From assembly GCA_963783385.1 (NCBI GenBank), contig CAWANJ010000003.1, positions 288,001-352,000 of the forward strand: a stretch of 64,000 nucleotides of DNA. Direction: 5' to 3'. This stretch comes from an uncultured Gemmatimonadales bacterium (GTDB lineage: Bacteria > Gemmatimonadota > Gemmatimonadetes > Palauibacterales > Palauibacteraceae). Each line of letters starts with the position of its first letter. Position 1 is the stretch's first letter. The notes under the pieces were generated by a model, which did not search any database, was not told the DNA's origin, and saw nothing but the letters and a program-made list of their open reading frames with translations. A program made the translations under genes and the position numbers. This document shows, piece after piece, positions 34,758-61,966 of this stretch.

Positions 34758-34791
34758 TTGACGCCCAAATATATTACAAGTAGGTTACGAA
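34758..34791 (+). promoter_or_regulatory. sigma70-type promoter of the paaX/benzoyl-CoA operon with overlapping direct repeat
   Basis: TTGACG-17 bp-TAGGTT in an AT-rich patch; TTACAA/TTACGA repeated at 11 bp spacing across the -10 box. Confidence 0.65.
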
Positions 34792-34812
34792 CGTGAGTGA
34801 AAGGAGATAGGT

Positions 34813-35682
34813 ATGGGTTCGTCGCGCAGCCCGCGAGAACGTGTCTTCACCCTGTTCGGGGATTACCTCCTCCACCGTCCGGGCGCCGTGTGGGTCGGGA
34901 GCCTCATCGCGCTCCTCGAGCCGCTCGGGCTGACGGAGGGCGCGGCACGCACGGCCCTGTCCCGCATGTCCTCCCGCGGCTGGCTCGTCTCGGAGCGGCG
35001 CGGCCGCAACGCCTTCTACACGCTCACCCGCAGGGGTCGGGAGCTGCTCGAGGAAGGCGAGGCGCGCATCTATCGTCCCACCTGGGACCGGCCGTGGGAC
35101 GGCGCCTGGTGCCTGGTCCACTACTCGATCCCGGAAGAGGATCGCTCCCTGCGCGACAGCCTTCGCCTGCGTCTCTCCTGGCTGGGCTGCGGGTCGCTCG
35201 GGAACGGCCTGTGGATCACCCCCCACGACATCGTCGACCGCGTGCGCGGCATCGCGGAGACCCTCGAGATCGAGGAGGGCCTGGAGGTGTTCCGCGCCGC
35301 TCGCGCCGCCATCGAGAGCCCCGAGGCCATCGTGGCACGCTGCTGGGACCTGACCTCGGTGCACCGCGACTACCTGGCCTTCATCGACCGCCAGCTGCCG
35401 CGCCTGCGCCGCGCGCAGGCCGAGCTCCGGGCGGGCGAGCTGTCCGGGGAACGGGCCTTCGTGCAGCGCTTCGACCTCGTGCACGAGTACCGGCAGTTCC
35501 CGTTCGAGGACCCCTACCTGCCCCGCCGGCTCCTGCCGGAGGACTGGGCCGGCGACTGCGCCGCCGGGCTGTTCCAGCGCCTCCACGACCTCCTCCAGGA
35601 GCCGGCGGAGTCCTTCGTGGACGGGGTCCTGGCGCGGGCCCAGGCCGAGACCGATTCGACCGTGAGCGTGAGCGTCACCTGA
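34813..35682 (+). CDS. paaX: PaaX-family transcriptional regulator
   Basis: VFTLFGDY, ARTALSRM..RGWL, YTLT..G, WDGAW.LV.YSIPE..R..R..LR..L.WLG, DPYLP..LLPEDW. Confidence 0.92.
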   Translation: MGSSRSPRERVFTLFGDYLLHRPGAVWVGSLIALLEPLGLTEGAARTALSRMSSRGWLVSERRGRNAFYTLTRRGRELLEEGEARIYRPTWDRPWDGAWCLVHYSIPEEDRSLRDSLRLRLSWLGCGSLGNGLWITPHDIVDRVRGIAETLEIEEGLEVFRAARAAIESPEAIVARCWDLTSVHRDYLAFIDRQLPRLRRAQAELRAGELSGERAFVQRFDLVHEYRQFPFEDPYLPRRLLPEDWAGDCAAGLFQRLHDLLQEPAESFVDGVLARAQAETDSTVSVSVT

Positions 35683-35721
35683 GGGACCACACAGCGACCT
35701 GAAGCGTTCGGAGGCAGCCCC

Positions 35722-36861
35722 ATGTCCCATTTCGAGTCCCGACCGGCCGAGGCGTTCGACTTCCAGGACATCCGGTACAGCAAGAAGGACTGGGTGGCCC
35801 GGATCACGATCGACCGACCCCACGCGTACAACGCCTACTCGACGCCGGCCCTGCGCGAGCTGGCCATGGCCTTCGAGGACGCGGCCTTCGACGACTCGGT
35901 GGCGGTGGTGGTCTACACGGGCTCCGGCACGGACGCCTTCTGCACGGGGGGCGACGTGAAGGAGTACGAGCGCCTCTACACCGACCGCCCGCGCGACTAC
36001 TGGAAGTACATGCAGCTCTTCCGCGCCTACCTCGAGAGCATCCTGCGCTGCGGCAAGCCGGTCATCGCGCGCCTCAACGGCATGGCGGTGGGCGGCGGTA
36101 ACGAGTCGCAGATGGCCTGCGACCTGGCCCTGATCGCCGAGCACGCGTGGATCGGGCAGGTCGGCACGCGGGTCGGCAGCGTGGCGGCCGGCGGGGCGAC
36201 GCAGTGGCTCCCGATTCTCGTCGGGGACCGACGCGCCCGCGAGATCCTCATGCTCAACGAGCGCATCTCGCCGCAGAAGGCGCTGGACTGGGGGCTCGTG
36301 AACCGGGTGGTCCCCTCCGTGGTTCGCGACGGCGCGTTCGTGAACGGCGCCACCCAGGAGGAGATCGACAAGGCGCGGCGCGGCCAGGACGGCTACGCCC
36401 TCAGCCTCGAGGCCCTGGACCGGGCCGTGGACGAGGTGGTCGACAAGCTCCTGGACAAGTTCGCCGAGTGCACCCGCTTCACCAAGCTCCAGGTCAACGT
36501 GTGGAAGGAGATGGCCTGGAACCAGACGATCGGCGCCGCCGGGGACTGGCTGTCGATCCACTACTCGAGCTTCGAGCCGTGGGAGGGCATGCGGGCGTTC
36601 GTCGAGAAGCGTGCGCCCCGTTACCGGCACCTCCGGGAGCTGGCCGCCTCCGGCGGTTCCAGCGAGTTCGTGTGGGGGCCCTACCGCCGGAGCTGTGCGG
36701 AGTGCGGAGCCGAGGGGATCCCGAGCGGCTTCTCCTTCTGCGGCGCCTGCGGGGCGCCCCTGGGGGAGGCCCACGCCAACGGCGGGCCGGCGGCCGGGGA
36801 GGCGAACGCCGGGGCGCATGCGGCCACCAGCGGGGCCGGCGCCGGGGAAGGCGGGTCGTGA
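35722..36861 (+). CDS. oah: 6-oxocyclohex-1-ene-1-carbonyl-CoA hydrolase (ring-opening crotonase)
   Basis: Crotonase motifs AFCTGGDVKEY and NGMAVGGG, long C-terminus with zinc ribbon CAECG..GIPSGFSFCGACG typical of Oah/BamA/BzdY; operon context. Confidence 0.85.
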   Translation: MSHFESRPAEAFDFQDIRYSKKDWVARITIDRPHAYNAYSTPALRELAMAFEDAAFDDSVAVVVYTGSGTDAFCTGGDVKEYERLYTDRPRDYWKYMQLFRAYLESILRCGKPVIARLNGMAVGGGNESQMACDLALIAEHAWIGQVGTRVGSVAAGGATQWLPILVGDRRAREILMLNERISPQKALDWGLVNRVVPSVVRDGAFVNGATQEEIDKARRGQDGYALSLEALDRAVDEVVDKLLDKFAECTRFTKLQVNVWKEMAWNQTIGAAGDWLSIHYSSFEPWEGMRAFVEKRAPRYRHLRELAASGGSSEFVWGPYRRSCAECGAEGIPSGFSFCGACGAPLGEAHANGGPAAGEANAGAHAATSGAGAGEGGS

Positions 36862-36880
36862 GCGGGCCGGGGGCCGGCTC

Positions 36881-37663
36881 GTGAGCGCCCCGGTGGAAAC
36901 GGGCTCCCGGGTCCGGTGCGAGCGGGACGGGGGAATCCTGCGCCTGGTCCTGGACCGGCCGCCCCTCAACGTGGCCGACGTGGCGATGCTCGAGGCCCTG
37001 GACGCGGCCCTCCACTCCGAGGCGACGTCGCCGGACACGCGAGTGGTCGTCCTGGCCGGGGCCGGACGCGCGTTCTGCGCCGGTGCGGACGTGGCGGACC
37101 ACGTGCCGGCGCGCGCTCCGGCGATGATCCGCGCCTTCGGTCGTGTCATTCGTGGGCTGCTGGATGTGGAGGTGCCGAGCGTGGCCGCGGTGCACGGGGC
37201 GGCGCTCGGCGGGGGCTGCGAGCTGGCGATGGCCTGTGACCTGGTGTGGGCGCGCGAGGATGCGCGGCTCGGTCAGCCCGAGGTCAGGGTGGGGGCCTTC
37301 CCGCCGGCGGCGGCCGCTCTCCTGCCACGGCTGGTGGGGCCGCAGGCGGCCCTGGATCTGGTGCTCACCGGGCGCACGATCGGGGCCGAGGAAGCGCTGC
37401 GGATAGGGCTCGTGAGCCGCGTCCTCCCCGTGGACTCCTTCGATGCCGACGTGCGCTCGATGGCCGCCGAGCTGGCCGGGTTCAGCCGTCCCGTGCTGGG
37501 CGTGGCGCGCCGGGCCGTGCGCGAGGCGATCGGCCGGCCGCTGGGGACCGCCCTCGACCGTGCCGAGTCGCTGTACCTCGAGGAGCTCCTCCCGCTCCGG
37601 GACGCGGCGGAGGGGGTGGCGGCGTTCATGGAGAAGCGCGAGCCGGCCTGGAGGGACGCGTGA
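36881..37663 (+). CDS. dch: Cyclohexa-1,5-dienecarbonyl-CoA hydratase (enoyl-CoA hydratase family)
   Basis: LDRPPLNV, AFCAGADVADH, GAALGGGCEL, GQPE..VG.FPP, ESLYLEELL..DAAEG..AF.EKR.P.W; next to reductase genes. Confidence 0.8.
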   Translation: MSAPVETGSRVRCERDGGILRLVLDRPPLNVADVAMLEALDAALHSEATSPDTRVVVLAGAGRAFCAGADVADHVPARAPAMIRAFGRVIRGLLDVEVPSVAAVHGAALGGGCELAMACDLVWAREDARLGQPEVRVGAFPPAAAALLPRLVGPQAALDLVLTGRTIGAEEALRIGLVSRVLPVDSFDADVRSMAAELAGFSRPVLGVARRAVREAIGRPLGTALDRAESLYLEELLPLRDAAEGVAAFMEKREPAWRDA

Positions 37664-37697
37664 GCCGGCCGGAAACCAGGGGATCGAGAGGTGTGCC

Positions 37698-38968
37698 GTG
37701 AGCATTCGAAACGGTACGGCGGGGGCCGCGGGCCGGGACCCGGGACGCGAGGCGCGCGAGGCCGCCGTCCGGGAGCTGGTGCCGCAGGGCTCCGGGGCGC
37801 CGCTCCAGGAGACCCTCGCGGCCCTCAGGGAGCTGGTCGAGGACACCACCTTCCCGACCGTGCGCGCCTGGCGCGAGGAGGGTGGGAAGGTGCTCGGCCA
37901 CTTCCAGGTCTACTTCCCGGAGGAGCTGGCGCACGCGGCCGGCATGCTCCCGGTCAAGATGCGGGGCGGCACGGTGGAGCGCCGCGAGGCGGACTCCCAC
38001 TTCGGCTCCTACATCTGCTCGGTGCTGCGCACCACCCTGGAGCTGGCCCTCACGGGACGGCTGGTGCCGGACCTGTTCGTCACCCACCCGATCTGTGACG
38101 CCGCCAGGAACCTGGCCGGGATCTGGGCTCGCACCCTGGACGTCCCGGTGGAGATCCTCTACTTCCCGCAGAATCCGAACTCGGCCTTCTCGGCCGACTA
38201 CCTGGCCAGCGAGTACCTGCGCGTCCTCGAGGACATCGAGGACGTGGCCGGACGCCGCGTGAGCACGGACGACCTCCGGGGCTCGATCCGGGTGTTCAAC
38301 GAGAACCGGCGCCTCCTGCGCGCCCTGTACCGCATCAAGCGCGAGGAGCCGTGGCAGCTGCCGGTGGACGAGGCCTACGTGCTCACGACGGTCGGGGGGC
38401 TCATCACCCGGGAGGAGCACAACGAGCTCCTCTCGGGGCTCCTGCCCCGCATCCAGGAGCGCGACGCCCGGCAGCCAGGACAAGATCCGCGTGGTCTTCG
38501 AGGGCGGCTTCTGCGAGCAGCCCCCGCTCGACCTGCTCGGGCGCCATCGCGGAGTTCTGCTACGTGGTGGACGACGACCTGCTGATCGGCCTGCGCTGGA
38601 TCCTGTCCGACGTGCCCCGCACGCCGGCGACCCCGTGGCACGACCTCGCCGCGGCGTACCTGGACGACTCCTCCTACAGCCCCGTGCAGCACGACCTGCG
38701 CAAGCCCAAGGAGAAGATGCTGCTGGAGCGCATCCGGAACGGGGCGGAGGCACAGGCCTGCATCGTGGCCGCGGCCAAGATGTGCGAGCCCGGCCTCGAC
38801 GAGCAGGTGGCCTACTCGCAGGCGCTCGACGAGGAGGGCATCCCCTACTTCGTCACGGAGTTCGAGGAGCGCATGAGCACCTTCGGCCACCTGCAGATCC
38901 AGCTCGAGACCTTCGTCGAGAACCACCTGCTGTTCGGGGAAACGGCGGCCAAGGGAGGCAAGCGATGA
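37698..38968 (+). CDS. bcrC: Class I benzoyl-CoA reductase subunit C (HgdB family); two frameshifts at about 38475-38545
   Basis: [59 protein letters not shown]; pieces in three frames. Confidence 0.82.
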
Positions 38969-40298
38969 CCACGACCACCGACATCGTGGGCCGCGGCGCC
39001 CGCGAGGGCCGCCGCCTGTTCGAGGGATGGTTCGACGAGCTCACCCGGACGGCGGAGGAGGGCCGGCCGGCCGCGTACGTGTTCGTCATGGGGAGCCTGT
39101 GCGAGATCCTGCGCACCTTCGACCTGCCGGCGGTGTTCCCGGAGATCCACTCGCTGCAGACCGCCGTGCGCCACGTGGCGGACGAGTACCTGAGCCAGGC
39201 CGAGGACGAGGGCTTCTCGCCGGACGTATGCGGCTACGTCAAGGCGGACTACGCGCTCCAGCTCCGGGGGGGCGAGCACCCCATGGGGCGGATCCCGCCC
39301 CCGTCCATCGCGCTCCTCACCAACGCCTGCAACACCTACGTGAAGTGGGCGGAGATCTGGGAGCGCATGTACGGCACCCCCGTCTTTACCCTGGACGTCC
39401 CGGGCACGCGCCAGCCCGTCAACATTGGCGGCATGGGTCCGACGCCCGACTCCGGAGGACCCGGCGCGACGCACGATCCCGGCGGCTTCGCGCGGGATCG
39501 GCGCTACGTGGAGGGCCAGCTCCGGGAGATCATCGACGCGTGCGAGGAGGTCTCGGGGGTGGCGTTCGACATCGACCGGCTACGGGAGGTCCTGCGGCTG
39601 ACCAACGACATGGCGGCCAGCTGGCGCAGGCTTCTCGAGCTCAACCGGCACCGGCCCGCGGCCTTCGACGCCATGCTCGAGGGCACGATCTACCTGGGCG
39701 TGGCCAACGTGCTGCGCGGCACCGAGGAGGGCGCGGCCTACTTCCGCGACCTGGTCGAGGAGATGGAGCTGCGGACCCGGGAGGGGCTGGGGCCCCTGGG
39801 GGCGCGCGTGGAGGAGAAGCACCGCCTGGCCTTCGTGGGCGTGCCCTGCTACCCGATATTCCGCCGCTTCTACGAGCTGTTCTCGGAGTGGGGCGGGGTG
39901 TTCGTCGGCTCCACCTACACCTGGTTCGCCTCGGGCGGACTGGACGAGTCGTTCGAGTACGACCTCGACCACCCCATGGAGAGCCTGGCCGAGGGGGTCC
40001 TGCTCACCGTCCGCCGGGCCATGGACAGCCTCATGCTTTCCAGGACCGCTCGCTCATCCAGGCTATGGACGAGTTCGGGATCGACGGCGTGGTCTACCAC
40101 CCGATCAAGAGCTGCCGGACGGTGTCCACCGGCCTGGCCGCCAGCCGCCGCGCGCTGCTCGACGCGCGCGACGTGCTGTGCCTCTACATCGAGTCGGACA
40201 TGATGGACAAGCGGGTCGTGTCCGAGGCGCAGCTCAAGAACCGCATCGACGCGTTCTTCGAGGGACTCGAGTCCCGGCGCCTACGGAGGGAAGCATGA
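38965..40298 (+). CDS. bcrB: Class I benzoyl-CoA reductase subunit B (HgdA family); frameshift near 40035
   Basis: [64 protein letters not shown]. Confidence 0.85.
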
Positions 40299-41113
40299 GC
40301 TACGCGGCGGGCGTGGACGTCGGCTCCACGCAGACCAAGGCGGTGATCGTGGACCGGCACGCCGAGATCGTCGGACGGAGCCTCATCCCCACGGGCGCCG
40401 ACGTGGTGGCGGCCGCCCAGCGCGCCTACGACCTGGCGCTGGAGGAGGCGGGCGTCGGGGCCGGGCAGGTGGGGAGCGTGGTCGGCACGGGCTACGGCCG
40501 CTACAAGGTGGAGTTCGGCGACACGCAGGTGACCGAGATCGTGTGCCACGCCCGGGGCGCGGCCAAGATGTTCCCGGGCACGCGCACCGTGCTCGACATG
40601 GGCGGCCAGGACACCAAGGCCATCCGCGTGCAGGCGGGCGGCGAGGTGGTCGACTTCTGCATGAACGACAAGTGCGCCGCCGGGACCGGCCGCTTCCTGC
40701 AGTCGGCCGCCGCGGCGCTCGAGCTCCGCCTGGACCAGCTCGGCCCCACGGCCCTGCGCGGCAAGCGCCCGGTGGAGATCACCACCACCTGCACCGTGTT
40801 CGCCGAGTCCGAGGTGCTCTCGTGGCTGAGCCGGGGCCGCAAGGTGGAGGACATCCTGGCGGGGGTGCACCGCTCCATCGGCTCCCGCTCCTTCGGGCTG
40901 CTCAAGCGGGTGGGGATCGAGGACGAGATCACCTTCACGGGAGGCGTCACCCGGAACGCGGCCATGGTGGCCGTGCTCGAGGAGATCCTGGACTCCCGCA
41001 TGAACGTGAGCGAGGACTCGCACTACATGGGCGCCCTGGGCGCCGCCCTGTTCGCCAGGGAGCGGGCGTCGGGCGCCCCGACTCCGGCCGGCGCCGGGGA
41101 GGGGGCCGCATGA
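40295..41113 (+). CDS. Benzoyl-CoA reductase ATP-binding subunit (short BcrA/BzdQ-like ASKHA activase, 272 aa)
   Basis: [54 protein letters not shown]. Confidence 0.9.
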
Positions 41114-41925
41114 GCATCGCGGCGGGCGTCGACATCGGCTCGACCCACACCAAGGCCGCCCTGCTGGTGGACGGCGAGCTGGCCGGGACCGCCATCCGGC
41201 ACACCGGCTTCCGGCTCGAGGAGGCCGCGAGGGAGGCGCTGGAGGAGGCCTGCTCGGTGGTGGACATCCGGCCCGAGGACGTCGACTACCTGACCACGAC
41301 GGGCTACGGGCGCAACCGGATCGCCGAGCGTGACCTCCAGGTGACCGACCTCACGGCGCAGGCGTGGGGCGCGCGGCGCTTCTTCCCGGCCACGCGCACC
41401 GTGCTGGACGTGGGAGGCCAGACCATGAAGGCCCTGCGCCTGGACGACGTGGGGCGCGTGGTCTCCTTCCGGCTCAACGACAAGTGCGCGGCCGGCACGG
41501 GCGCCTTCCTCGAGAAGACGGCCCGCTACCTGGGCCATCCCGTCGAGGAGATCGGCGACGTGGCCGCCGGCGCGACGGAGGCCGTGCCGATCTCGGGCGT
41601 GTGCGCCGTGTTCGCCGAGTCCGAGGTCATCAACCACGTGAGCCAGGGCCGCCGGGCGCCCGAGATCCTGCGGGGCGCCATGGAGTCCCTGGTCGAGAAG
41701 TCCGTGCGTCTCATGAAGCGCGTCGGCCTCGAGCCGGAGTTCACCCTGGTGGGCGGCATCATGCGCTTCCCGACCATGGTCGAGGTGATGCGACGCGACC
41801 TGGCCGAGGAGGTGAACGTCCCGGCCGGGGAGCTGGTCCAGTTCACCGGCGCCATAGGGGCCGCCGTCCTCTCGGCCTACCGGCTCGAGCAGGCGCGCGG
41901 GGCCCCCGCGGCGCGGATCGCCTGA
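41110..41925 (+). CDS. Benzoyl-CoA reductase second ATP-binding subunit (BcrD/BzdP-like, 271 aa)
   Basis: [44 protein letters not shown]. Confidence 0.9.
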
Positions 41926-41932
41926 GGGCGCC

Positions 41933-42145
41933 GTGGACACCGTGCACGCCGAGCGGCTGGCGCCCTGGGTCAAGCGCTTCGTGGCGACCCCGAACCGGGC
42001 CCGGGAGGCCGCCGAGATCTATGAGCGGCTGGGGCACGAGGTGCGCCTCGAACCCGCCGCGGGAGAGGACCTCCCGGACGGCTGCGAGGGCTGCGCCCTG
42101 GCGCTGGGCCTGTTCCAAACCGTGTACACCAGGAGTCTGACATGA
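41933..42145 (+). CDS. 70-aa hypothetical CxxC protein in the benzoyl-CoA reductase operon
   Basis: Fills the gap between reductase and had, GAGG RBS, stop overlaps had start (ATGA); WVKRF....[18 protein letters not shown]...CEGC...VYTR. Confidence 0.75.
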
Positions 42146-43185
42146 GAGCGGCGGTGTTCCACGGGGCCGGCCAGCCCCTCACCCTGGAGGAAGTGGCCCT
42201 CCCCGAGCCTGGACCGGACGACATCGTGGTCCGGGTGGCCGCGTGCGGCGTGTGCCACACCGACCTCCACTACATCGACCACGGGACTCCCACCTTCAAG
42301 GCCCCGCCCCTCATCCTGGGCCACGAGGTGGCGGGCACGGTCCACGCGGTCGGCCGCGACGTGGAGCGGTTCGAGACGGGCGCGCGCGTGCTCCTCCCGG
42401 CGGTCCTCCCGTGCGGCACCTGCCGCATGTGCCGCACGGGCCGGGAGAACATCTGCGAGAACGGCCTCATGCTCGGGAACCACATCGACGGGGGCTACGC
42501 CGAGTTCATCCGCGTGCCGGCCCGCGACGCCTTCCGGCTCCCCGAGGAGATCCCCCTGGTCGAGGGCTCGATCATCGCCGACGCGCTCACCACGCCCTAC
42601 CACGCCGTGGTGAACCGGGGCCGCGTGATCCCGGGCGACGTGGTCGTGGTCGTGGGCTGCGGCGGGATCGGCCTCAACGTGGTGCAGATGGCGGCCGCCG
42701 TCGGCGCCCGGGTGGTGGCGGTGGACCTCAATCCCGCCAAGCTCGAGTGGGCCCGGAAGCTGGGGGCCGCCGAGACGCTGGACTCGGGCGCGACCGACCG
42801 CCCGGACCGCGCCCTGCGCGAGCTCACGGGCGGCGGCGCGGACGTGGCCTTCGAGGCGGTCGGCCACGCGGCCACCCAGGAGCTGGCCCTCGGCAGCCTG
42901 CGCAGCGGCGGGCGGCTCGTCCTGGTGGGCTACAGCCCGGAGACCATGGCGCTCAACGCCGGACGGGTCATGTTCCGCGAGCTCGAGGTGATGGGGTCCC
43001 TGGGCTGCCGGCCGGTGGACTATCCCCGCGCCATCGAGCTGGCCCGCCAGGGCCGCGTGCGGGTGGTCGAGCTCGTCACCCACCGCTTCCCGCTCGAGGA
43101 GATCGACCGGGCGTTCGACGTCCTGCGCTCGGGCGAGGCCATCCGGGCCGTGGTGACGCCGGGCGCCGAGGCGGTGCCGGCGTGA
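42142..43185 (+). CDS. had: 6-hydroxycyclohex-1-ene-1-carbonyl-CoA dehydrogenase (Zn-dependent MDR family)
   Basis: [25 protein letters not shown].......[21 protein letters not shown]; operon context. Confidence 0.85.
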
Positions 43186-43198
43186 CGGGGCCCGTCTG

Positions 43199-43673
43199 AT
43201 GGGGCCGGCGGCAGCAGCCGACGGACCGCCGCGGGTCACGGACGCGCTGCGCGGCGAGCACGGCGCCCTGTACGCGCTGTTCGGGGCAATCCGCGACCTC
43301 CTGGACGAGGCGACCTCGGACGGCGCCCGGGCGCGCCTGCTCGCGCCGGCTCCTCGCCCCGGTGCTCGCCTCGCACGCCGGACCTCGAGGACGGGCTCCT
43401 TCTCGCCCGCGTTCGAGGGTGCGGGAGCCCGGCCCTCTGGCCGCCATGGAGGAGGAGCATCGCGGCATCGAGGCGCTGCTCGAGGCGCTGGCCCGCGAGC
43501 GGGACGACGCGCGCGTGCGAGACCTCCTCGAGGAGCTCCTGGATGCCGCTCGCCTTCACTTCGAGCGCGAGGAGGTGGCCGCCTTCCCGTTCGCCGAGTC
43601 GCACCTGGAGGATGGGGTCCTCCGCCGGCTCGGGAGCGAGTGGGCCGCCCGCCGCGGGGTGCGGCTGGACTGA
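43199..43673 (+). CDS. Hemerythrin/HHE cation-binding domain protein, frameshifted (about 43330-43435)
   Basis: TDALRGEHGALY, SHA..(LED), MEEEHRGIE, HFEREEVAAFP: H/HxxxE pattern over shifted frames. Confidence 0.7.
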
Positions 43674-43871
43674 GCCCGGGGCGCGCGGTCGGCCACCGTC
43701 CGGCCGCGCGCCCGCCGCCCTCCCACCGCCCATTCTCCTCCCGCCCGTCCGCCCCCCTCCACTGGACCGCACATCCCACCCCGCCTAGCTTTCTCTCCCC
43801 CTGGGTCCGCCCTGACGACCGGGCTCCTCGCGGAGGCCCGGCCCAAGGCCTCCCCGTGAAGCGAGGGTTAC

Positions 43872-45698
43872 ATGAGGCCCACCGACGTATCGGATCCGCA
43901 GTACTTCCACCGCGTGGTGGACTGCCAGTGGGCGTGCCCCGCCCACACCAACGTCCCCGAGTACATCCGGCTCATCGCCGCCGGGCGCTACACCGAGGCC
44001 TACATGCTGAACCGGAAGTCCAACGTATTTCCGGGGATCCTGGGCCGAACGTGCGACCGCCCGTGCGAGCCCGCCTGCCGGCGGACGCGCATCGATGGCG
44101 AGCCGGTGGCCATCTGCCGGCTGAAGCGCGTGGCGGCGGACCTCCGGGGCGACGTGGACGGTCTCCTCCCGGCGGTCCCGGACGAGAAGAACGGGCGCCG
44201 GATCGCCTGCGTCGGGGCCGGGCCGGCCTCTCTCACGGTGGCCAACGACCTCCTGCCGCTGGGTTACGAGGTGACGATCTTCGAGAAGCTCGAGCGCCCC
44301 GGCGGGCTCATGTGGACGAACATCCCCGAGTTCCGCTTGCCGGGCCGCGTCCTGTGGGAGGAAATCGATACCATCCTGGACCTGGGGGTGGACCTCCGGC
44401 TGGGCGCGCCGGTCGAGAGCCTGGCCGCGCTCCTGGAGGGCGACATGGGCGGGCCGTTCGACGCCGTGTTCCTCGGCTCGGGTGCGCCCAAGGGCAAGGA
44501 GCTCGAGCTGCCGGGCCGCCACGACACCGACCGCATCCACATCGGCATCGAGTGGCTGGAGGCCGTGCGCTTCGGGCACGTGGACACGGTCGGCGACCGG
44601 GTGCTGGTCATCGGGGTGGGCAACACGGCCATGGACTGCTGCCGCACGGCCATGCGTCTGGGCGCCTCCGACGTGAAGGTCATGGCGCGCAAGAGCCGCA
44701 AGCACTTCAAGGCCTCGCCGTGGGAGCTCGAGGACGCCGAGGGCGAGGGCGTGCAGATCGTGGAGAACCACGCGCCGTCGCGCTACGTGGTCGAGGACGG
44801 GAAGCTGGTGGGCATGGAGTTCGAGCTCGCCACCTGGCACCCGGGCCCGGACGGCCGACTCAAGAAGGAGACGCACGGGAGCACGACGATCGCCTGCGAC
44901 GAGGTCATCCTGGCCATCGGCCAGGACAACGCCTTCCCCTGGATCGAGCGGGACATCGGAATCGAGTTCGGCGACTGGGACATGCCGGTCGTGGATCGCA
45001 CCACCTTCCAGACCACCCGGCCGGGCGTGTTCGCCGGGGGAGACGCCGCCTGGGGCCCGGAGAACATCATCTGGGCCGTCGAGCACGGTCACCAGGCCGC
45101 CATCTCGATCCACTCGTACTGCGAGGGCCGCCCGCTCGAGGAGCGCCCGGCCTACGGCCAGAACCTCATCAGCGAGAAGATGGGGCTGCACGAGTGGAGC
45201 TACTCGAACGACTACGACGAGGCCGAGCGCGCCCGCATGCGCTACGCGGACCTGGAGCGCCGCCGCGCCCACCTGGACCTGGAGGCGGAGCTGGGGTTCG
45301 ACTTCGACCAGGCCCTCCAGGAGGTCGAGCGCTGCCTGAACTGCGACGTCCAGACCTACTTCACGCGCGAGCTGTGCATCGAGTGCGACGCCTGCGTGGA
45401 CGTGTGTCCGCTCTCGTGCTTGACGATCACGGCCGACGGGCCCGAAATCGAGCTGCGCCAGCGGCTCACGGTGCCGGCCCTCAACCTGGACGAGCCGCTG
45501 TACGCCTCCGACACCCTGCCGCAGACCGGGCGCCTCATGATCAAGGACGAGGACCTCTGCATCCACTGCGGCCTGTGCGCCGAGCGCTGCCCCACGGCCG
45601 CCTGGGACATGCGAAGCTCCGATCTCCTCATTCCGTACGCGGGACTGGACGCCGGCCAGGCGCGCCCGGCGCGCGGCGCGCCCGCGGAGGTCGCGTGA
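43872..45698 (+). CDS. GltD-like FAD/NAD(P) oxidoreductase with C-terminal 2x[4Fe-4S] domain (KorC-like subunit)
   Basis: CQWACPAH, GRTCDRPCEPAC, GAGPAS, IGVGNTAMDC, FAGGD, ERCLNC, CIECDACVDVCP, CIHCGLCAERCP. Confidence 0.88.
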   Translation: MRPTDVSDPQYFHRVVDCQWACPAHTNVPEYIRLIAAGRYTEAYMLNRKSNVFPGILGRTCDRPCEPACRRTRIDGEPVAICRLKRVAADLRGDVDGLLPAVPDEKNGRRIACVGAGPASLTVANDLLPLGYEVTIFEKLERPGGLMWTNIPEFRLPGRVLWEEIDTILDLGVDLRLGAPVESLAALLEGDMGGPFDAVFLGSGAPKGKELELPGRHDTDRIHIGIEWLEAVRFGHVDTVGDRVLVIGVGNTAMDCCRTAMRLGASDVKVMARKSRKHFKASPWELEDAEGEGVQIVENHAPSRYVVEDGKLVGMEFELATWHPGPDGRLKKETHGSTTIACDEVILAIGQDNAFPWIERDIGIEFGDWDMPVVDRTTFQTTRPGVFAGGDAAWGPENIIWAVEHGHQAAISIHSYCEGRPLEERPAYGQNLISEKMGLHEWSYSNDYDEAERARMRYADLERRRAHLDLEAELGFDFDQALQEVERCLNCDVQTYFTRELCIECDACVDVCPLSCLTITADGPEIELRQRLTVPALNLDEPLYASDTLPQTGRLMIKDEDLCIHCGLCAERCPTAAWDMRSSDLLIPYAGLDAGQARPARGAPAEVA

Positions 45699-47764
45699 GC
45701 CCGGCGGGCCGCGTCCCGACGTCGCGCGCCCCGGAGCCCTCCGCCGGGACGGAGCCCGGCGCCGAGGGCGAGGGGCGCGACGCGCGGATCAACGACCTCG
45801 CCCTCAAGATCGCCACGGTCAACGGCACCGGGTCGGCCAGCGCCAACGGCCTCCTCATGCAGGCCATCTTCCGCATGGGGATCCCGGTCACGGGAAAGAA
45901 CGTGTTCCCCTCCAACATCCAGGGCCTGCCGACCTGGTACGAGATCCGGGTGAGCGGGGAGGGGTGGACGGCGCGCAGCCCCGAGTACGACCTGATCGTG
46001 GCCATGAATCCGGCCACCTACGCGCGCGATATCGACGAGGTCCAGACGGGCGGCTGGGTCCTGCACGACAGCTCGTGGCCCCTGGCCCGGGAGCTCCGCC
46101 GCGAGGACGTGACCTTCCTGGGCGTGCCCCTGGCCCGCATGGGCTCGGAGCACTTCCACGGCTCGCGCACCCGCATCCTCATGAAGAACGTGGGCTACGT
46201 GGGGGCGCTCTCCGCCCTGCTGCAGGTGGACCGGGACGTGGTGCGCAGCCTCCTCGAGGAGCGCTTCGGGGAGAAGAAGCGGGCGCTCCTCGACGCCAAC
46301 TTCGAGGCGTTCGACCTGGGGTTCGAGTTCGCCCGGGAGCACTTCGACTGCCCGCTCCCCATCCGGCTCTCGCCCATGGACGCCACCAGGGACTCGGTGC
46401 TCATCGATGGCAACACGGCGGCGGCCATCGGGTGTCTGTACGCGGGCGCCACGGTGGCCTCCTGGTACCCGATCACCCCCTCGACCTCGCTCGTCCAGGC
46501 GTTCGAGGCCTTCGCGAACCGGTACCGGAAGGACCCCGACACCGGGAAGCTGCGGGTGGCCGTGATCCAGGCCGAGGACGAGCTGGCGGCGGCCGGCATG
46601 GCGATCGGGGCGGGCTGGATGGGAGCCCGCTCGTTCACGTCGACCAGCGGGGCGGGGATCTCGCTCATGTCGGAGTTCATCGGGCTCGCCTACTACACGG
46701 AGATCCCGGTCGTCCTGTTCGACATCCAGAGGGTGGGGCCCTCCACGGGGATGCCGACCCGGACGCAGCAGGGCGACATCCTCATGGTGGCCTATGCCTC
46801 CCACGGCGACACCAAGCACATCGCGCTCTTCCCGGCCGACCCGAAGGAGTGCTTCGAGCTGGCGGTGGCGGCCTTCGACCTGGCCGAGCGCTTCCAGACG
46901 CCGGTGTTCGTGGTCTCGGACCTCGACATCGGGATGAACGACTGGGTGGTGCCCCGCTTCGAGTGGGACGACGACTACCGCCCCGACCGCGGCAAGGTGC
47001 TCACCGCCGAAGAGCTCGAGGCGGGGGCCGTGTTCCACCGGTACGAGGACGTGGATGGCGACGGGATCCCGTGGCGGACGCTGCCCGGCGTCCATCCGCG
47101 CGGCGCCTTCTTCACCCGGGGCTCGGGGCACGACCGCTACGCCCGCTACACGGAGGACGCCGGCCCGTACACGGACGTGGTGGACCGCCTGACCCGCAAG
47201 CACGCCACCGCCGCCGCGCACGTGCCGGCGCCGGTCATCGCGCGGATGCCGGGCGCCACCATGGGCCTGCTGACGATCGGCGGGTGCGACGCGGCCTGTC
47301 GGGAGGCCGTGCACGGGCTGGCGGAGCGCGGCGTCCCGCTCGACTACATGCGGGTCCGGGCCTTCCCGTTCGGGGAGGAGGTGGAGGCCTTCCTGCTGGA
47401 GCACCCGACCACCTTCATCGTCGAGCAGAACCGCGACGCCCAGCTCCACCACCTGCTCCTGGCCGAGACGGCGGTCACCAAGGACCGCCTGGCCTCCGTG
47501 CGGCGCTACGGCGGATTGCCGCTCAGCGCCGTGCACGTGGTGGAGGACGTGCTCGGCCTCCTGGGGGAGGGGGGCGGGAACGGCGACGGGGCGGCCGCGT
47601 CCGGAGGCACGGTCGGAGCCGCGGCCGGCGCCCGCGGCGGCAACGGAGCGCGGGCGGAGGGCGGACGCGGGAGCCCGGGGCGCTCGGGCTCGGACGGTGG
47701 ATCGCAGGGCCGCGGCGCCGGCGCGCCACGGAACGCCGCGGGCCCCGAGGGAGGTGACGCGTGA
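45695..47764 (+). CDS. korA: 2-oxoacid:acceptor oxidoreductase alpha subunit (gamma-alpha fusion); substrate not certain
   Basis: ATVNGTGSASAN, PSNIQGLPTWYE, WYPITPSTS, QAEDE, QRVGPSTGMPT, VEQNRDAQL; GTG overlaps upstream stop. Confidence 0.85.
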   Translation: MSPAGRVPTSRAPEPSAGTEPGAEGEGRDARINDLALKIATVNGTGSASANGLLMQAIFRMGIPVTGKNVFPSNIQGLPTWYEIRVSGEGWTARSPEYDLIVAMNPATYARDIDEVQTGGWVLHDSSWPLARELRREDVTFLGVPLARMGSEHFHGSRTRILMKNVGYVGALSALLQVDRDVVRSLLEERFGEKKRALLDANFEAFDLGFEFAREHFDCPLPIRLSPMDATRDSVLIDGNTAAAIGCLYAGATVASWYPITPSTSLVQAFEAFANRYRKDPDTGKLRVAVIQAEDELAAAGMAIGAGWMGARSFTSTSGAGISLMSEFIGLAYYTEIPVVLFDIQRVGPSTGMPTRTQQGDILMVAYASHGDTKHIALFPADPKECFELAVAAFDLAERFQTPVFVVSDLDIGMNDWVVPRFEWDDDYRPDRGKVLTAEELEAGAVFHRYEDVDGDGIPWRTLPGVHPRGAFFTRGSGHDRYARYTEDAGPYTDVVDRLTRKHATAAAHVPAPVIARMPGATMGLLTIGGCDAACREAVHGLAERGVPLDYMRVRAFPFGEEVEAFLLEHPTTFIVEQNRDAQLHHLLLAETAVTKDRLASVRRYGGLPLSAVHVVEDVLGLLGEGGGNGDGAAASGGTVGAAAGARGGNGARAEGGRGSPGRSGSDGGSQGRGAGAPRNAAGPEGGDA

Positions 47765-48816
47765 CCTACATCGAGAAGCCGCGGGTCCACCATCCCGCCC
47801 TCGAGAAGAACGAGCTCGGTCTCACCCGGCGCGACTACGAGGGCCGCATGTCGACCCTGTGCGCGGGCTGCGGGCACGACTCGGTCACCGCGGCCATCAT
47901 CGAGACGTTCTGGAAGCTGTCGGTGCCCCCGCACCGGGTGGCCAAGCTGAGCGGGATCGGGTGCTCGGCCAAGACGCCCACCTACTTCATCCAGGAGGCG
48001 CACGGCTTCAACGCCGTGCACGGCCGCATGCCCTCCATCGTCACGGGCGGCAACGCCGCCAACCGGGACCTCGTCTACATCGGGATCAGCGGCGACGGGG
48101 ACTCCCTGTCCATCGGCCTCGGGCAGCTGTGCCACGCCATCCGGCGCAACGTGGACATGCTCTACGTGCTCGAGAACAACGGCGTGTACGGCCTCACCAA
48201 GGGCCAGTTCTCCGCCTCGGCCGACGTGGGCTCGCGGTCCAAGACGGGCGAGGTGAACCGGCAGCGGCCCATCGACCCCGTGCTCCTGGCTCTGTCGCTG
48301 GGGGCCAGCTTCGTGGCCCGGAGCTTCTCGGGCGACAAGGCGCAGCTCGTCCCCATCCTCGAGGCGGGGCTCCGGCACCGCGGTCTGGCCCTGGTCGACG
48401 TGATCTCGCCGTGCGTCACCTTCAACGACCACGAGGGCTCCACCAAGAGCTACCGCTACACGCGCGAGCACGAGGTGGTGGCCGTGGAGGCCGACTTCGT
48501 GCCGCTCCGGCGCGAGATCACGGCCGAGTACGGGCCCGGCGACGTGCGCGAGGTGGCCATGCACGACGGCAGCGTGGTGCGCTTCCGGAAGGTGCCGGCC
48601 CACTACGATCCCACCGACCGCGACGCCGCCTACGCCTACGTTCGCGAGCGCCAGGAGGCCGGCGAGGTCCCGACCGGGCTCCTCCACATCGACCCCACCG
48701 GTCAGGAGATGCACGAGGTGCTGGGCACGGTCGAGACGCCGCTGGTCGATCTCCCCTACGAGGCGCTGTGTCCCGGCCGCGAGAAGCTGTCCGAGATCAT
48801 GGCGGCTTTCCGGTAG
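47761..48816 (+). CDS. korB: 2-oxoacid:acceptor oxidoreductase beta subunit (TPP-binding)
   Basis: STLCAGCGH, SGIGCS, VHGR, SGDGD..SIG, NNGVYGLTKGQ.S, SPCVTFN. Confidence 0.9.
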   Translation: MTYIEKPRVHHPALEKNELGLTRRDYEGRMSTLCAGCGHDSVTAAIIETFWKLSVPPHRVAKLSGIGCSAKTPTYFIQEAHGFNAVHGRMPSIVTGGNAANRDLVYIGISGDGDSLSIGLGQLCHAIRRNVDMLYVLENNGVYGLTKGQFSASADVGSRSKTGEVNRQRPIDPVLLALSLGASFVARSFSGDKAQLVPILEAGLRHRGLALVDVISPCVTFNDHEGSTKSYRYTREHEVVAVEADFVPLRREITAEYGPGDVREVAMHDGSVVRFRKVPAHYDPTDRDAAYAYVRERQEAGEVPTGLLHIDPTGQEMHEVLGTVETPLVDLPYEALCPGREKLSEIMAAFR

Positions 48817-49732: not shown

Positions 49733-51179
49733 CTACTCCCCGGCCGCCACCCGCCTCACGATCTCGTACATCATGCCGGTCCCCCGCCGGATGTTCTCCA
49801 CGGACAGCCGCTCGTCGTTGCCGTGGATGCCGTGCTCGTCCTCCTCCGGGATCAGGAAGGGCGCGAACCCGTAGCAGTGGACTCCCAGGTCGCGGAAGAA
49901 GTGGCTGTCCGTGAACCCGGTCTCCACGGACGGGACCACGGCGGCGCCGGGGAAGCGCGCCTTCACGACGTCGTGGATGGCCCGGTACAGCGGATCGTCG
50001 GTGGGCGAGACGGCCGGCGTGAAGCCCATGATCTTCTCGATCCGGATGGACGGATCGGCGATGATCGTGGCCAGTCGCGCGATGAACGCGTCCTGGTCCT
50101 GGTCGGGCAGGAGCCGGCAGTCCAGCTGCGCCTCGGCGGTGGGCGGCACCACGTTGATCTTGTCGCTGCCGTGCAGGACCGTGATCGAGCAGGTGTTGCG
50201 GACCAGGGCGGCCATGGACGGGTGGTCGATCTGGAGCTTCAGCACCGTGTCCCGGCTGTTCACCGCCTCCGCGATGTCGCCGTAGGCCTTCTTCCACCCC
50301 GGGCCCACGCTGGGCGCGAGGGCCTTGAAGTAGGCGTCCACGGCTGGGCACGACCCGGGGCTGGAAGTGGTAGGTCTGGATCGCGTACAGGGCCGCCACC
50401 AGCCGGTTCACGGCGGAGGCCACCGGCGGGGTCGAGCCGTGGCCGGGGCACCCCGGTCGAGGTGAGCTTCAGCCACAGCGGCACCTTCTGCGTCACCTCG
50501 ATCCCGAACTGCTCGCGGCCGTCCGAGACCGTGCCCATGCCGCCCTCGTTCAGAAGCATCCCCGCGCCCCGGAACGCCTCGGGGTGGTGCTTCACCACCC
50601 AGCCGGCGCCGTAGAAGCCGCCCGCCTCCTCGTCCGCGGTGGCCATGAAGATCACGTCGCGATCCAGGGGGACCTTCAGCCGGTGCAGGGCGAGGAAGGC
50701 CTCCAGCTCCACGATCCCCAGCGTCTTCGTGTCCAGGGCGCCGCGGGCGTAGACCGTGTCGCTCCTCACCTCGGCCGCGAAGGGAGGCGCGTGCCAGTAG
50801 GCGGTGTCGGCGGGCACCACGTCCATGTGGGAGAGGAGGAGCAGGGCGGGCGCGTCGCCCGAGCCCTTCAGCCGGGCCCACACGTTTCCGCGGCCGGCCG
50901 CCGACACGGCCGTGTCGAACGGGATGCCCTCCCGCGCGAAGATCTGCGCGAAGAAGCGCATGGTGCGGACCTCGTTCCCCGGCGGGTTCGTGGTGTTGAT
51001 GCGCAGGTAGTCGCGCGTCGAGGCTCACCGCCTCGGTCGCCATGGTGGCCGTGTCGGGCGACTGGGCGCGGAGCGATCGCCAGCGGCGGGGCCGCGCTCG
51101 CGGCCAGCAGGAGGGCCATCGCGAGGGCCGTGGACGGCACGGCGGACGACGGGGCGGCTGCGAGCGGGGCACGGCGCAT
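49733..51179 (-). CDS. M20/M25/M40 family metallopeptidase, secreted; several frameshifts
   Basis: LLLLSHMDVVP, YARGALDTK, ADEEAGG, NEGG, GFTDSHFFR, IHGNDERL across several frames. Confidence 0.82.
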
Positions 51180-55820: not shown

Positions 55821-57182
55821 ATGTCGATCAGCACTTCACAGCGACGGGACGTGGACGACGCGGCGACGCCGTTGACGCGGGTGGTGGTTCCCGCGCCGGA
55901 CGCCACGCCCGAGGCCTTCCTGTCCGCCTGCCTGACGCCGCGCGGCTTCTGGCAGCGGGACGCGGCCTGGAACGCCTGGAGCGGGAGCGTGGTCGGGATC
56001 CGAGTGGGGGCGGGAGAGGGCCGCGGTCCCATCGCCACGGTCGCCCGCGAGGCCTCGCTCCGGCTGGCGGGTGGGACCGACGAGGGCCGGCCGCCGCGCT
56101 TCCACGGCGGCTTCGCCTTCCACTCCGACCACCGGGCCGCGGGCGCATGGTCCGACTTTCCAGCCGCCCGCTTCGACCTGCCGGCCGCCGAGCTGATCGG
56201 GGGAGCCGGGGTCGGGACCCGGCTCGTGGTCACCGTGCCCGGCTCGGGAGAGCGGGCCAGGGCGCGGGCGAGGCGCCGCGCCGAGGCGCTCGCCGGTCGC
56301 CTCGGCGCCGGTCCCGCGGCCGGCGCTCCCCGACGACCGGACGAGGTCCGGGACAGGAGCGAGCCCGTGTCGCGGGAGGCCTGGCGCCGGGGAGTCGAGG
56401 CCGCGCTCGAGGCGATCCGGGCCGGGCGCTTTCGCAAGGTGGTGCTCGCCCGGCCCCTGGACGTGGCGCTCGCCCGGGTCCCGGACCCCGCGGCCCTGCT
56501 CCTCCGTCTGCGCGGCCGCGAGGAGGGGAGCTTCCCCTTCCTGTTCGAGCCGGTGCCGGGATCGGTCTTCTTCGGCGCCTCGCCCGAGCTGGTCGCGCTG
56601 CGCAGCGGCGACCGACTGCACGCCATGGCCGTGGCCGGAACCGCGCCGCGCTCCTTCGACGCCGCCGAGGACGAGCGGCTGGGGCGCGAGCTCCTGGACA
56701 GCGCCAAGGAGCGGACCGAGCACGCGATCGGCGTGAGGGACATGCGCGAGCGCCTGGCGGCCCTGGGCGGCGACCCCGAGGTGGACGAGCTGCCCCACCT
56801 CCTGCGCCTGCGCGGCATCCAGCACCTGCGCACGGACCTGTCCGTGCGGGCCGGCCGCGGGCGCGGCGTGCTCGACCTGCTCGAGGTCATGCACCCGACC
56901 GCGGCCGTGTCCGGCTACCCGCGCGAGCCCGCCGCCGCCTTCCTGCGCGAGCGGGAGAGCTTCGCGCGCGGCTGGTACGCCGGGCCGGTGGGCTGGTTCG
57001 ACGCCGCCGGCGAGGGAGCGTTCGCGCCGGCCCTGCGCTGCGCGCTGCTGCGCGGTGACCGGGCGCGACTGTTCGCGGGCGCCGGGCTTGTGGAGGGCTC
57101 GGACCCGGAGCGCGAGTGGGAGGAGACGGCCCTGAAGCTGCGACCCATGCTGGAGATCCTCGCCGGCGGTCCGGAGGCGTGA
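55821..57182 (+). CDS. menF: Isochorismate synthase
   Basis: KVVLAR, FFGASPEL, AVAGT, KERTEH, IQHL.T, HPTAAV.G.P, RGWYAGPVGW, FAGAG.V.GSDP..EWEET. Confidence 0.9.
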   Translation: MSISTSQRRDVDDAATPLTRVVVPAPDATPEAFLSACLTPRGFWQRDAAWNAWSGSVVGIRVGAGEGRGPIATVAREASLRLAGGTDEGRPPRFHGGFAFHSDHRAAGAWSDFPAARFDLPAAELIGGAGVGTRLVVTVPGSGERARARARRRAEALAGRLGAGPAAGAPRRPDEVRDRSEPVSREAWRRGVEAALEAIRAGRFRKVVLARPLDVALARVPDPAALLLRLRGREEGSFPFLFEPVPGSVFFGASPELVALRSGDRLHAMAVAGTAPRSFDAAEDERLGRELLDSAKERTEHAIGVRDMRERLAALGGDPEVDELPHLLRLRGIQHLRTDLSVRAGRGRGVLDLLEVMHPTAAVSGYPREPAAAFLRERESFARGWYAGPVGWFDAAGEGAFAPALRCALLRGDRARLFAGAGLVEGSDPEREWEETALKLRPMLEILAGGPEA

Positions 57183-59122: not shown

Positions 59123-59196
59123 CGAGCGCGGAACCGGGGGACCGGAGCCCGGCACGACACGTCCAGGAACACCGCAGACCAGGGAGAGGAATCACC

Positions 59197-60999: not shown

Positions 61000-61089
61000 C
61001 GCCGCCCCCACCGCCTCTTTTCGTGCACGAGATTCCGGACTCGGGCCCGGCTTTTGCGAGCATCACTTCCGTCATGTTCGGGGCGGTCC

Positions 61090-61122
61090 TTGCAACCAGG
61101 GGGATGGTGTCTATTGTATAAC
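61090..61122 (+). promoter_or_regulatory. Candidate sigma70 promoter of the OMP gene
   Basis: TTGCAA-16 bp-TATTGT (overlapping TATAAC) in an AT-rich intergenic region. Confidence 0.4.
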
Positions 61123-61182
61123 AGTGCCAATAGTGGATCTTTTCCGTGTGATTTCGAGTCACTCCCGCAGAGAGGGGGCAGC

Positions 61183-61842: not shown

Positions 61843-61869
61843 GCTCCCGCTCTCCGGACCGGAACGCGC

Positions 61870-61895: not shown

Positions 61896-61966
61896 CGTGC
61901 ATCGGCCGGCGGACCGGGCCGCCTCCGGCGCCGTGTCCGCCTCCCGCGCGGCGTCCGCCGGTCGGC

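Follow-up and report, generated by a model that had tools for sequence, protein, structure and literature searches.

The window analysed here, a 64,000-nucleotide stretch from an uncultured Gemmatimonadales bacterium (assembly GCA_963783385.1, contig CAWANJ010000003.1, positions 288,001 to 352,000), contains a 13-gene run on the plus strand (34813-48816) that is probably an operon native to Gemmatimonadota, in which ATP would drive the dearomatisation of an aryl-coenzyme A (aryl-CoA) thioester without oxygen; the substrate is most likely benzoyl-CoA or a close ring-substituted analogue. Four adjacent genes encode a reductase whose subunits each have their best solved match in a different subunit of 3-methylbenzoyl-CoA reductase (MBR; MbdONQP), a class I benzoyl-CoA reductase (BCR). 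They are accompanied by genes for Dch-, Had- and Oah-like ring-opening enzymes, a PaaX-family regulator, a three-gene 2-oxoacid oxidoreductase, a hemerythrin-domain protein and a 70-residue protein that we call s70. An initial annotation of the DNA had described a same-strand, translationally coupled class I BCR cluster with Dch, Had and Oah. Pfam, NCBIfam and a Viterbi gene-calling pass recovered all the listed genes on the plus strand in the stated order. Both the coupling, seen in six four-base start-stop overlaps, and the class I assignment, with best matches to MBR subunits and to pathway-specific NCBIfam families, held up.

The window has a G+C content of about 73%, so long open reading frames occur in every frame. 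Genes were called from third-position G+C and a codon-usage Viterbi pass and then checked with Pfam and NCBIfam; every gene of the cluster except s70 had a match in one of the two (E values from 1e-07 to 1e-159). The reductase genes follow one another as gamma (BcrC/MbdN-like, 37698-38968), beta, the catalytic subunit (BcrB/MbdO-like, 38965-40298), the alpha ATPase (MbdQ-like, A1, 40295-41113) and the delta ATPase (MbdP-like, A2, 41110-41925), with two +1 frame switches in gamma and one frame switch in beta. In these adjacent, overlapping genes Pfam found HGD-D twice and BcrAD_BadFG twice (224 bits in alpha, 178 bits in delta). We compared the largest in-frame piece of each subunit with all PDB chains. 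Beta matched MbdO (9g87_A) with 387 bits (E = 7e-115), compared with 90 bits for HadB of a 2-hydroxyacyl-CoA dehydratase (HAD), 45 for BzdO and 28 for a double-cubane protein. Gamma matched MbdN (9g87_B) with 282 bits, compared with 96 for HadC (3o3m_B), 65 for BzdN (8s02_B) and 32 for the double-cubane protein. The best matches of alpha and delta were MbdQ (9gai_D, 373 bits; 212 bits for HAD activators) and MbdP (9gai_C, 254 bits), respectively, and each ATPase scored lower against the other Mbd ATPase and against HAD activators (activator range, 177-212 bits).

The cysteines of both catalytic subunits are conserved, as in MbdONQP. In beta, Cys89 and Cys122 were invariant and the Cys of the KSCR motif was nearly invariant across 24 sequences. 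Gamma has five Cys that were universal among 71 sequences; at a sixth position (about 37824-37826), Cys occurs in 82% of the 71 sequences and in MbdN, and Leu in the window and 12 loci. The gamma subunit of the window also carries a rare Cys, found in 3% of sequences, in the motif AQACIVAA. In the available text of PMC11971306, BzdNO of Aromatoleum/Azoarcus has an aqua-[4Fe-4S] cluster held by three Cys (BzdO Cys95, Cys128 and Cys380) and an [8Fe-9S] cluster held by six Cys, all BzdN ligands. Mapped by motif rather than by structural alignment, the Cys pattern of beta and gamma appears to agree in kind with these sites, and BzdNOPQ (8s02) shares the enzyme class and the type of iron-sulfur (FeS) chemistry described in that text. 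BzdO and BzdN are nevertheless distant from the window subunits, at the 45 and 65 bits given above, and BzdO His131, three residues past the second Cys ligand (PMC11971306, same text), corresponds in this motif-only mapping to Tyr in the window (NACNTY).

The best NCBIfam models for gamma and beta were TIGR02263 and TIGR02260, both of the Thauera type; no Mbd-specific model was among the NCBIfam matches. Because the MBR bit scores are high, the Bcr cut-offs are missed and the Bzd scores are lower still (BzdN 61, BzdO 45 and BzdQ 173 bits, against cut-offs of 380-454), the sequences place the enzyme in the Thauera/MBR branch of class I BCRs, nearest MBR, and as a putative equivalog of neither BcrCBAD nor BzdNOPQ. 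Alpha matches only positions 233-432 of the 432-position BcrA profile TIGR02259: BcrA of the Thauera type has a long N-terminal part that the window alpha lacks, and both window ATPases, at about 270 residues, are short like MbdQ (269 residues) and MbdP (273 residues). A tblastn search of the beta fragment against plasmids returned 13 records, all at 26% identity or less, with no characterised BCR among them.

The ring-opening genes may belong to the same pathway. The best of all NCBIfam models for each was a dearomatisation-specific family, scored below its cut-off: TIGR03189 (dienoyl_CoA_hyt; 192 bits, cut-off 292.5) for the Dch-like dienoyl-CoA hydratase (36881-37663), TIGR03201 (dearomat_had; 266 bits, cut-off 338.65) for the Had-like Zn-dependent 6-hydroxycyclohex-1-ene-1-carbonyl-CoA dehydrogenase (42142-43185; Pfam ADH_N and ADH_zinc_N) and TIGR03200 (dearomat_oah; 206 bits, cut-off 464.45) for the Oah-like crotonase, which resembles 6-oxocyclohex-1-ene-1-carbonyl-CoA hydrolase (35722-36861; Pfam ECH_1). 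The Dch-like coding frame begins after the oah stop, with GTG at 36881 as the putative start. The Oah-like protein ends in a CxxC..CxxC zinc ribbon, weakly matched in Pfam (residues 323-347; 36688-36760), and this tail was present in all 21 homologues with more than 50% identity at related loci. The stretch of the Oah-like protein aligned to TIGR03200 ends at position 328 of the 360-position profile.

Upstream of these genes lies the PaaX-family transcriptional regulator (34813-35682), with PaaX, PaaX_M and PaaX_C above their Pfam gathering scores and TIGR02277 at 242.1 bits, below its cut-off of 264.55. By sequence, the protein is best regarded as a family member and not as a proven phenylacetyl-CoA-responsive equivalog. 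Around paaX we found no sigma-70-like promoters, four terminator-like sites, all on the minus strand, where 2.0 were expected, and, in a search for operator repeats, only G+C-rich repeats of low specificity; Rfam and tRNA scans of the window found no RNA genes. The overlaps that couple the genes are ATGA or GTGA start-stop junctions at gamma/beta (38965), beta/alpha (40295), alpha/delta (41110), s70/had (42142), korC/korA (45695) and korA/korB (47761). The remaining junctions are gaps of 7-39 nucleotides, but 198 nucleotides precede korC, and the genes directly downstream of korB lie on the opposite strand.

Related loci were sought in one genome per GTDB species. Of at least 600 stretches picked up, at least 596 code for a relative, and the analysis covers the 80 best of these (L numbers below); the genes at each were counted by tblastn with the window gene products, and since many of the 80 loci end at contig ends, the synteny counts are minima. 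The four reductase genes are complete, in the order gamma-beta-alpha-delta, in 70 of the best 80. The full order paaX-oah-dch-gamma-beta-alpha-delta-s70-had is identical in eight of them (L006, L007, L014, L016, L017, L021, L023 and L039), including an Anaerolineae metagenome-assembled genome (MAG; L021), and three more lack only paaX. Where at least 3.5 kb of upstream DNA was available, a paaX homologue lay within 3.5 kb upstream of gamma in 16 of 53 loci. At other loci, for example in Acidobacteriota, Acidimicrobiia and Planctomycetota, had and oah are more distant (32-43% identity) and differently placed. Gemmatimonadota account for 33 of the best 80 loci; the rest belong to Chloroflexota, Planctomycetota, Acidobacteriota, Actinomycetota and seven other groups.

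The proposed Gemmatimonadota host was likewise supported. A quick maximum-likelihood tree, built from the N-terminal fragment of beta and rooted at the midpoint, put the window beside L001 in a 22-row clade whose other 21 rows are all Gemmatimonadota (Shimodaira-Hasegawa-like approximate likelihood ratio support, 100). In a protein search with the beta fragment, 3811 of the 8000 candidates scored reached E ≤ 1e-20; those listed (120) have 387-483 residues and 64-93% identity, and the named ones are mostly from Gemmatimonadota MAGs. The flanking phosphoenolpyruvate synthase has top matches at 95% and 90% identity, and its best named match, at 83%, is from a Gemmatimonadota MAG. The G+C content of the cluster (0.70-0.75) equals that of its flanks. 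On this ground and that of the all-Gemmatimonadota clade, horizontal acquisition from Proteobacteria was rejected, and the sequence data support a Gemmatimonadota host in which the cluster looks native to the phylum.

Two further features were seen among the related loci. A Phycisphaerales contig (JASMMN010000024.1) carries the cluster twice in inverted orientation (L033, 9261-30277; L034, 32908-53924, reversed) with identical beta genes, which could reflect true duplication or an error of assembly. L062 (647-8105) and L033, L045 and L064 (about 30-1600) contain, upstream of the main cluster, a second, much more distant set of BCR/HAD type (beta-like, 22-31% identity; ATPase-like, 39-45%), to which L062 adds dch-like and korC-like genes. 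These sets may be paralogous radical-enzyme systems.

The run ends with korC (43872-45698), korA (45695-47764) and korB (47761-48816). The three-subunit 2-oxoacid oxidoreductase of the initial annotation stands as to its three genes, with a corrected make-up. KorA has fused gamma and alpha domains (TIGR03710, 531 bits, above the cut-off of 482.75; best solved match PDB 6n2n, 223 bits). KorB is the thiamine pyrophosphate-binding beta subunit (Pfam TPP_enzyme_C; TIGR02177, 204.5 bits, below the cut-off of 261.9). The third, KorC-like protein (608 residues) is an NfnB/GltD-like, NAD(P)H-binding flavoprotein with a C-terminal 2x[4Fe-4S] ferredoxin domain (Pfam Fer4_20, Pyr_redox_2 and Fer4_7; NCBIfam NF009410, 389 bits; PDB NfnA, 268 bits, and NfnI large subunit, 234 bits). 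KorABC of Azoarcus evansii consists of KorA, KorB and a flavin/FeS NAD(P)H subunit. The window proteins appear to share this domain architecture, and their specificity for 2-oxoglutarate is putative. In L001, a DUF222/HNH endonuclease gene (4952-6700, minus strand) lies between the hemerythrin gene and korC, at the place of the 198-nucleotide spacer in the window.

The initial annotation held that the arrangement of the operon matched no known cluster, which is not supported: the reductase order gamma-beta-alpha-delta is that of bcrCBAD and badDEFG, and the best solved relatives are all MbdONQP subunits (9g87, 9gai, 9gal and 9gba), matched one to one. Beyond that correspondence, the mbd genes are ordered O-N-Q-P, whereas the window order is N-O-Q-P-like, with gamma first; the mbd regulator is the TetR-type MbdR, whereas that of the window is of the PaaX family; and the MBR host is a betaproteobacterium, whereas the window operon belongs to Gemmatimonadota and has the additional s70 and hemerythrin genes. 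With Thauera aromatica and Rhodopseudomonas palustris, the operon shares a trio of Dch, Had and Oah type and a 2-oxoglutarate-type oxidoreductase as the probable electron source. Unlike those systems, the window cluster has no free ferredoxin gene, and its oxidoreductase adds to KorAB a third subunit with NAD(P)H-binding and ferredoxin domains. The HAD systems (HadBC with HadI, HgdAB with HgdC) belong to the same superfamily, with HGD-D and BcrAD_BadFG domains.

Taken together, these genes suggest the following route. ATP hydrolysis by the MbdQ/MbdP-like ATPases would drive low-potential electrons into the gamma/beta (MbdN/MbdO-like) module, which would reduce the aryl ring to a cyclic dienoyl-CoA. 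The Dch-like enzyme would then hydrate this product, the Had-like enzyme oxidise it and the Oah-like enzyme open the ring, giving a pimelyl-CoA-type product. KorAB may supply the electrons locally, and the NAD(P)H/flavin adenine dinucleotide module and 2x[4Fe-4S] domain of the third subunit could stand in for a free ferredoxin. The PaaX-family repressor probably senses an aryl-CoA, and s70 and the hemerythrin-domain protein may work as an accessory pair in protecting, repairing or maturing the FeS reductase, which is oxygen-labile. The family assignments, synteny, host and frame breaks of the operon are observed, and these roles, together with the electron path and the substrate, are what we infer from them.

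Several results weigh against the proposed operon function or narrow it. The Bcr models were scored well below their cut-offs: BcrC, 151 bits (plus 56 for a second piece) against 421.15; BcrB, 174 bits (plus 28 for a second piece) against 486.55; BcrA, 211 against 578; and BcrD, 130 against 312.85. With the Dch, Had and Oah scores also below their equivalog cut-offs, the proteins would not count, by NCBI criteria, as the characterised Thauera or Bzd proteins, although part of the shortfall of gamma and beta comes from their broken frames. The affinity to MBR is read from PDB bit scores, without a tree of characterised references, and our literature search found no biochemical work on this reductase clade. 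As the initial annotation had noted for the ligase and the free ferredoxin, Pfam found no aryl-CoA ligase, free ferredoxin or upper-pathway gene in the cluster or the rest of the window. Among the best 80 loci, korC and korA homologues with more than 80% identity follow the cluster only in L001; because korCAB adjoins the cluster only there and in the window, it is a lineage-specific addition and not a conserved part of the system. Finally, 6 of the at least 14 frameshifts in the 64 kb fall within the 14-kb cluster and strike both catalytic genes, although detection is more sensitive there.

Some of these results could also mean that the enzyme is a true arene reductase whose physiological substrate is not benzoyl-CoA but another aryl-CoA, either substituted or derived from an amino acid (methyl-, halo-, hydroxy- or amino-benzoyl-CoA), with the operon serving the catabolism of aromatic amino acids. 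The closest solved enzyme acts on 3-methylbenzoyl-CoA, the BcrCBAD equivalog cut-offs are missed, and the known ligand of PaaX, to whose family the regulator belongs, is phenylacetyl-CoA. A Beta_elim_lyase gene (tyrosine phenol-lyase/tryptophanase family, about 450-480 residues) adjoins the cluster in 8 of the best 80 loci, all Gemmatimonadota (L002, L004, L007, L008, L009, L015, L018 and L024), and was confirmed with Pfam in the three scanned (L007; L009, 14306-15706; and L018); the window has no such gene. On either side of the window cluster there are three amino-acid permeases and two peptidases (M20 and M28). However, benzoyl-CoA is also a substrate of MBR, little can be drawn from permeases and peptidases in the neighbourhood, and no ligase, decarboxylase, carboxylase or dehydroxylating enzyme that would define such a route was found in the window or in eight related loci that were scanned. 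We consider a substrate of this kind rather doubtful as the explanation; an aromatic-amino-acid source for the aryl-CoA is a lead only, and the leads define no route. Far less probable is a radical enzyme of the BCR/HAD type that does not reduce arenes, for example a 2-hydroxyacyl-CoA dehydratase, a double-cubane-cluster reductase or an enzyme reducing CoA esters with alicyclic or partly reduced rings. Pfam names only HGD-D, some NCBI homologue records read "2-hydroxyacyl-CoA dehydratase", and every score is below the BCR equivalog cut-offs. But by bit score the catalytic subunits are far from the dehydratases, and a grouping with these was the outcome that the initial annotation had named as decisive against it: they score 90-96 bits against HAD proteins and 282-387 against MBR, a three- to fourfold difference, and 28-32 bits against the double-cubane protein. 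HAD systems have a single ATPase gene, for the activator (177-212 bits to the window proteins), whereas the window has two distinct ones, each matching a different MBR ATPase subunit, and dearomatisation-pathway neighbours, with the Dch-, Had- and Oah-like genes finding their best families in the benzoyl-CoA pathway.

Whether the host still makes this reductase depends on how the frame breaks are read. The initial annotation overlooked six frameshifts in the cluster (two in gamma, one in beta and three in the hemerythrin gene), and the long open reading frames resembling bcrC (37443-38585) and bcrB (39027-40298) are not the true frame throughout. The gamma coding sequence changes frame near 38469-38475 and again near 38539-38542; the intact gamma of L007 and L009 aligns as three contiguous pieces, each in a different frame (residues 25-247 at 37803-38471, 249-269 at 38476-38538 and 271-399 at 38543-38938). 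In beta, the break lies near 40036-40041, between DSLM and FQDR, and tblastn with the 93% identical protein P0001 (444 residues) placed residues 1-360 and 359-437 in two frames. The hemerythrin frame changes three times, from about 43330 to 43425, relative to the intact 160-residue L001 orthologue. Gamma and beta are thus the two of the four reductase subunits with interrupted frames.

These breaks could mark a decaying relic, in which the gamma, beta and hemerythrin frameshifts are real and the organism no longer makes an active reductase. The catalytic gene pair and the hemerythrin gene have three breaks each, and the frames of the adjacent ATPase, had, oah, dch and kor genes are unbroken. 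The related loci are in one frame (beta in 78 of 79, gamma in 72 of 72), and the density, 6 in 14 kb, exceeds the at least 8 proven in the other 50 kb. That both catalytic genes are hit is the main evidence against an assembly error. However, genes with no link to the pathway are broken too: menB (59191-60034) is split at about 59611, so that positions 4-107 and 109-250 of the ECH_1 profile match in different frames; the gene of an M20 peptidase (49736-51024, minus strand) at about 50345 and 50445; a MacB-type permease gene (3340-5845, minus strand) at about 5386; and a BNR/sortilin-repeat gene (17267-21468, minus strand) at least four times relative to an intact paralogue next door. It is these at least eight further frameshifts that suggest a general indel problem. 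The break sites inspected coincide with or adjoin short homopolymers of G, C or T, identity to P0001 is equal on the two sides of the break in beta (92.8% and 92.4%), and the displaced pieces have accumulated no in-frame stops or deletions. The six cluster breaks are therefore likely to be assembly indel errors rather than gene decay; that they are real mutations is unlikely, and a relic without active reductase is more unlikely still. Programmed frameshifting was rejected, since 78 of 79 homologous loci lack the beta break and 72 of 72 lack those of gamma, and since unrelated genes are broken in a similar way. Indel errors seem to be frequent in the assembly from which the whole window comes, every gene model needs checking, and the catalytic genes should not be taken at face value before the indels are checked.

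Between the delta ATPase and had lies s70 (41933-42145), which encodes 70 residues with a CxxC motif and had no Pfam or NCBIfam match. Aligned with homologues from 35 loci, it shows the motif GWxRRF...E..Y..LG.EV...C..C....YTR, in which W, G, V, both C and R are invariant. A profile search of 1.84 billion cluster representatives gave 1016 matches at E ≤ 1e-3 and 633 at E ≤ 1e-10. Of the 150 listed, all but one are 69-132 residues long, and the names seen in this conserved family are all "hypothetical protein". Where at least 600 nucleotides of DNA follow the delta gene, s70 lies within 1.5 kb downstream of it in 42 of 68 loci. The AlphaFold model (predicted local distance difference test score, 85.5) has a beta-alpha-beta-alpha-beta arrangement, and a Foldseek search against PDB gave no match at E ≤ 1e-3; in the ESM Atlas it matched only "hypothetical protein" clusters (0.86-0.88). 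The best PDB profile match, to a dynein docking protein (E = 0.007), was taken as chance. Our literature search found no description of s70 and no precedent for it in such clusters.

Following had is the hemerythrin (HHE) domain gene (43199-43673), with the Pfam Hemerythrin match on its C-terminal piece. A gene of this kind occurs in 26 of the best 80 loci, as three subtypes (17, 5 and 4 loci), the window type belonging to the group of five; in L029, L050, L066 and L077 the order is delta-hemerythrin-s70. The only long s70 match listed, P0209 (295 residues), joins an s70 domain (residues 22-97) to a hemerythrin HHE domain (114-247); it may be a genuine fusion, or it may result from read-through in a contig of draft quality. 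In RIC proteins, a hemerythrin domain is joined to a small N-terminal domain that bears Cys. P0209 is laid out like these RIC/YtfE proteins, a likeness of architecture only: s70 lacks ScdA_N, any Pfam match and any fold match, no RIC protein was among its fold-search or PDB profile-search matches, and among s70 and five family members the only Pfam match was the hemerythrin part of P0209. The association of a hemerythrin gene with aromatic degradation has a precedent, since a COG3945 hemerythrin/HHE gene of unclear role occurs in the benzoate (box) clusters of Rhodocyclales described in the available text of PMC6449761. The reductase loci differ from box clusters and RIC in recruiting three different hemerythrin subtypes. 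A predicted complex of s70 with the hemerythrin of L017 scored 0.00 in both runs, which is evidence neither way. From the gene linkage and the one fusion, s70 and the hemerythrin protein may act together on oxygen-labile FeS centres, in protection, repair, maturation or sensing of O2 or NO. A more specific role, in which the pair would be a module dedicated to protecting, repairing or maturing the FeS centres of MBR-type arene reductases or would serve these enzymes as an O2/NO gate, is a tentative proposal that we hold to be improbable at present; we know of no description of such a module.

Elsewhere in the window, a menaquinone operon (55848-64000) contains genes for a chorismate-binding MenF-like protein, a MenD-like thiamine pyrophosphate enzyme, MenB (frameshifted), a UbiA-family MenA and an AMP-binding MenE-like protein, the last at 62790 on the window edge. 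Since this AMP-binding gene belongs to the men operon, it should not be mistaken for the missing benzoate-CoA ligase. At the other end (2-13168, minus strand), four tandem MacB/FtsX-type permease paralogues of about 800 residues each are followed by an ABC ATPase and an HlyD-family adaptor, an unusually expanded efflux or lipoprotein-release-type locus.

The claim that the cluster was the best candidate for an undescribed system is not supported. The same operon is present in many public MAGs, JGI already labels beta homologues "benzoyl-CoA reductase subunit B" (NCBI has "2-hydroxyacyl-CoA dehydratase"), and the enzyme type and pathway are already known. The new elements are the phylum in which this MBR-like class I operon occurs, its different regulator, the KorCAB genes specific to one lineage, and an accessory protein that is conserved but unnamed. 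To our knowledge, the biochemistry of class I benzoyl-CoA reductases comes from only a handful of Proteobacteria. For lineages such as those found here, our literature search gave only survey-level mentions of bcr genes, as in the available text of PMC12008989. The terms benzoyl, aromatic, bcr and 2-oxoglutarate are all missing from PMC9426454, a paper on Gemmatimonadota genomics, and PMC10803450 does not mention Gemmatimonadota, Chloroflexi or Actinobacteria.

Our results describe one well-conserved MBR-like operon across Gemmatimonadota and at least 11 other named groups (at least 596 loci). If the operon is active, abundant uncultured bacteria would share in the turnover of aromatic carbon under anoxic conditions. 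The s70 and hemerythrin genes offer a testable handle on how an oxygen-sensitive enzyme is kept working in oxygen-respiring organisms. If their proposed role as a dedicated module is true, ATP-dependent dearomatisation would be common among uncultured phyla, perhaps with aromatic amino acids as its source, rather than confined to a few denitrifying Proteobacteria, and largely aerobic or microaerobic Gemmatimonadota, Anaerolineae, Acidobacteriota, Planctomycetota and Acidimicrobiia could run ATP-driven, Birch-type ring reduction at oxic-anoxic interfaces.

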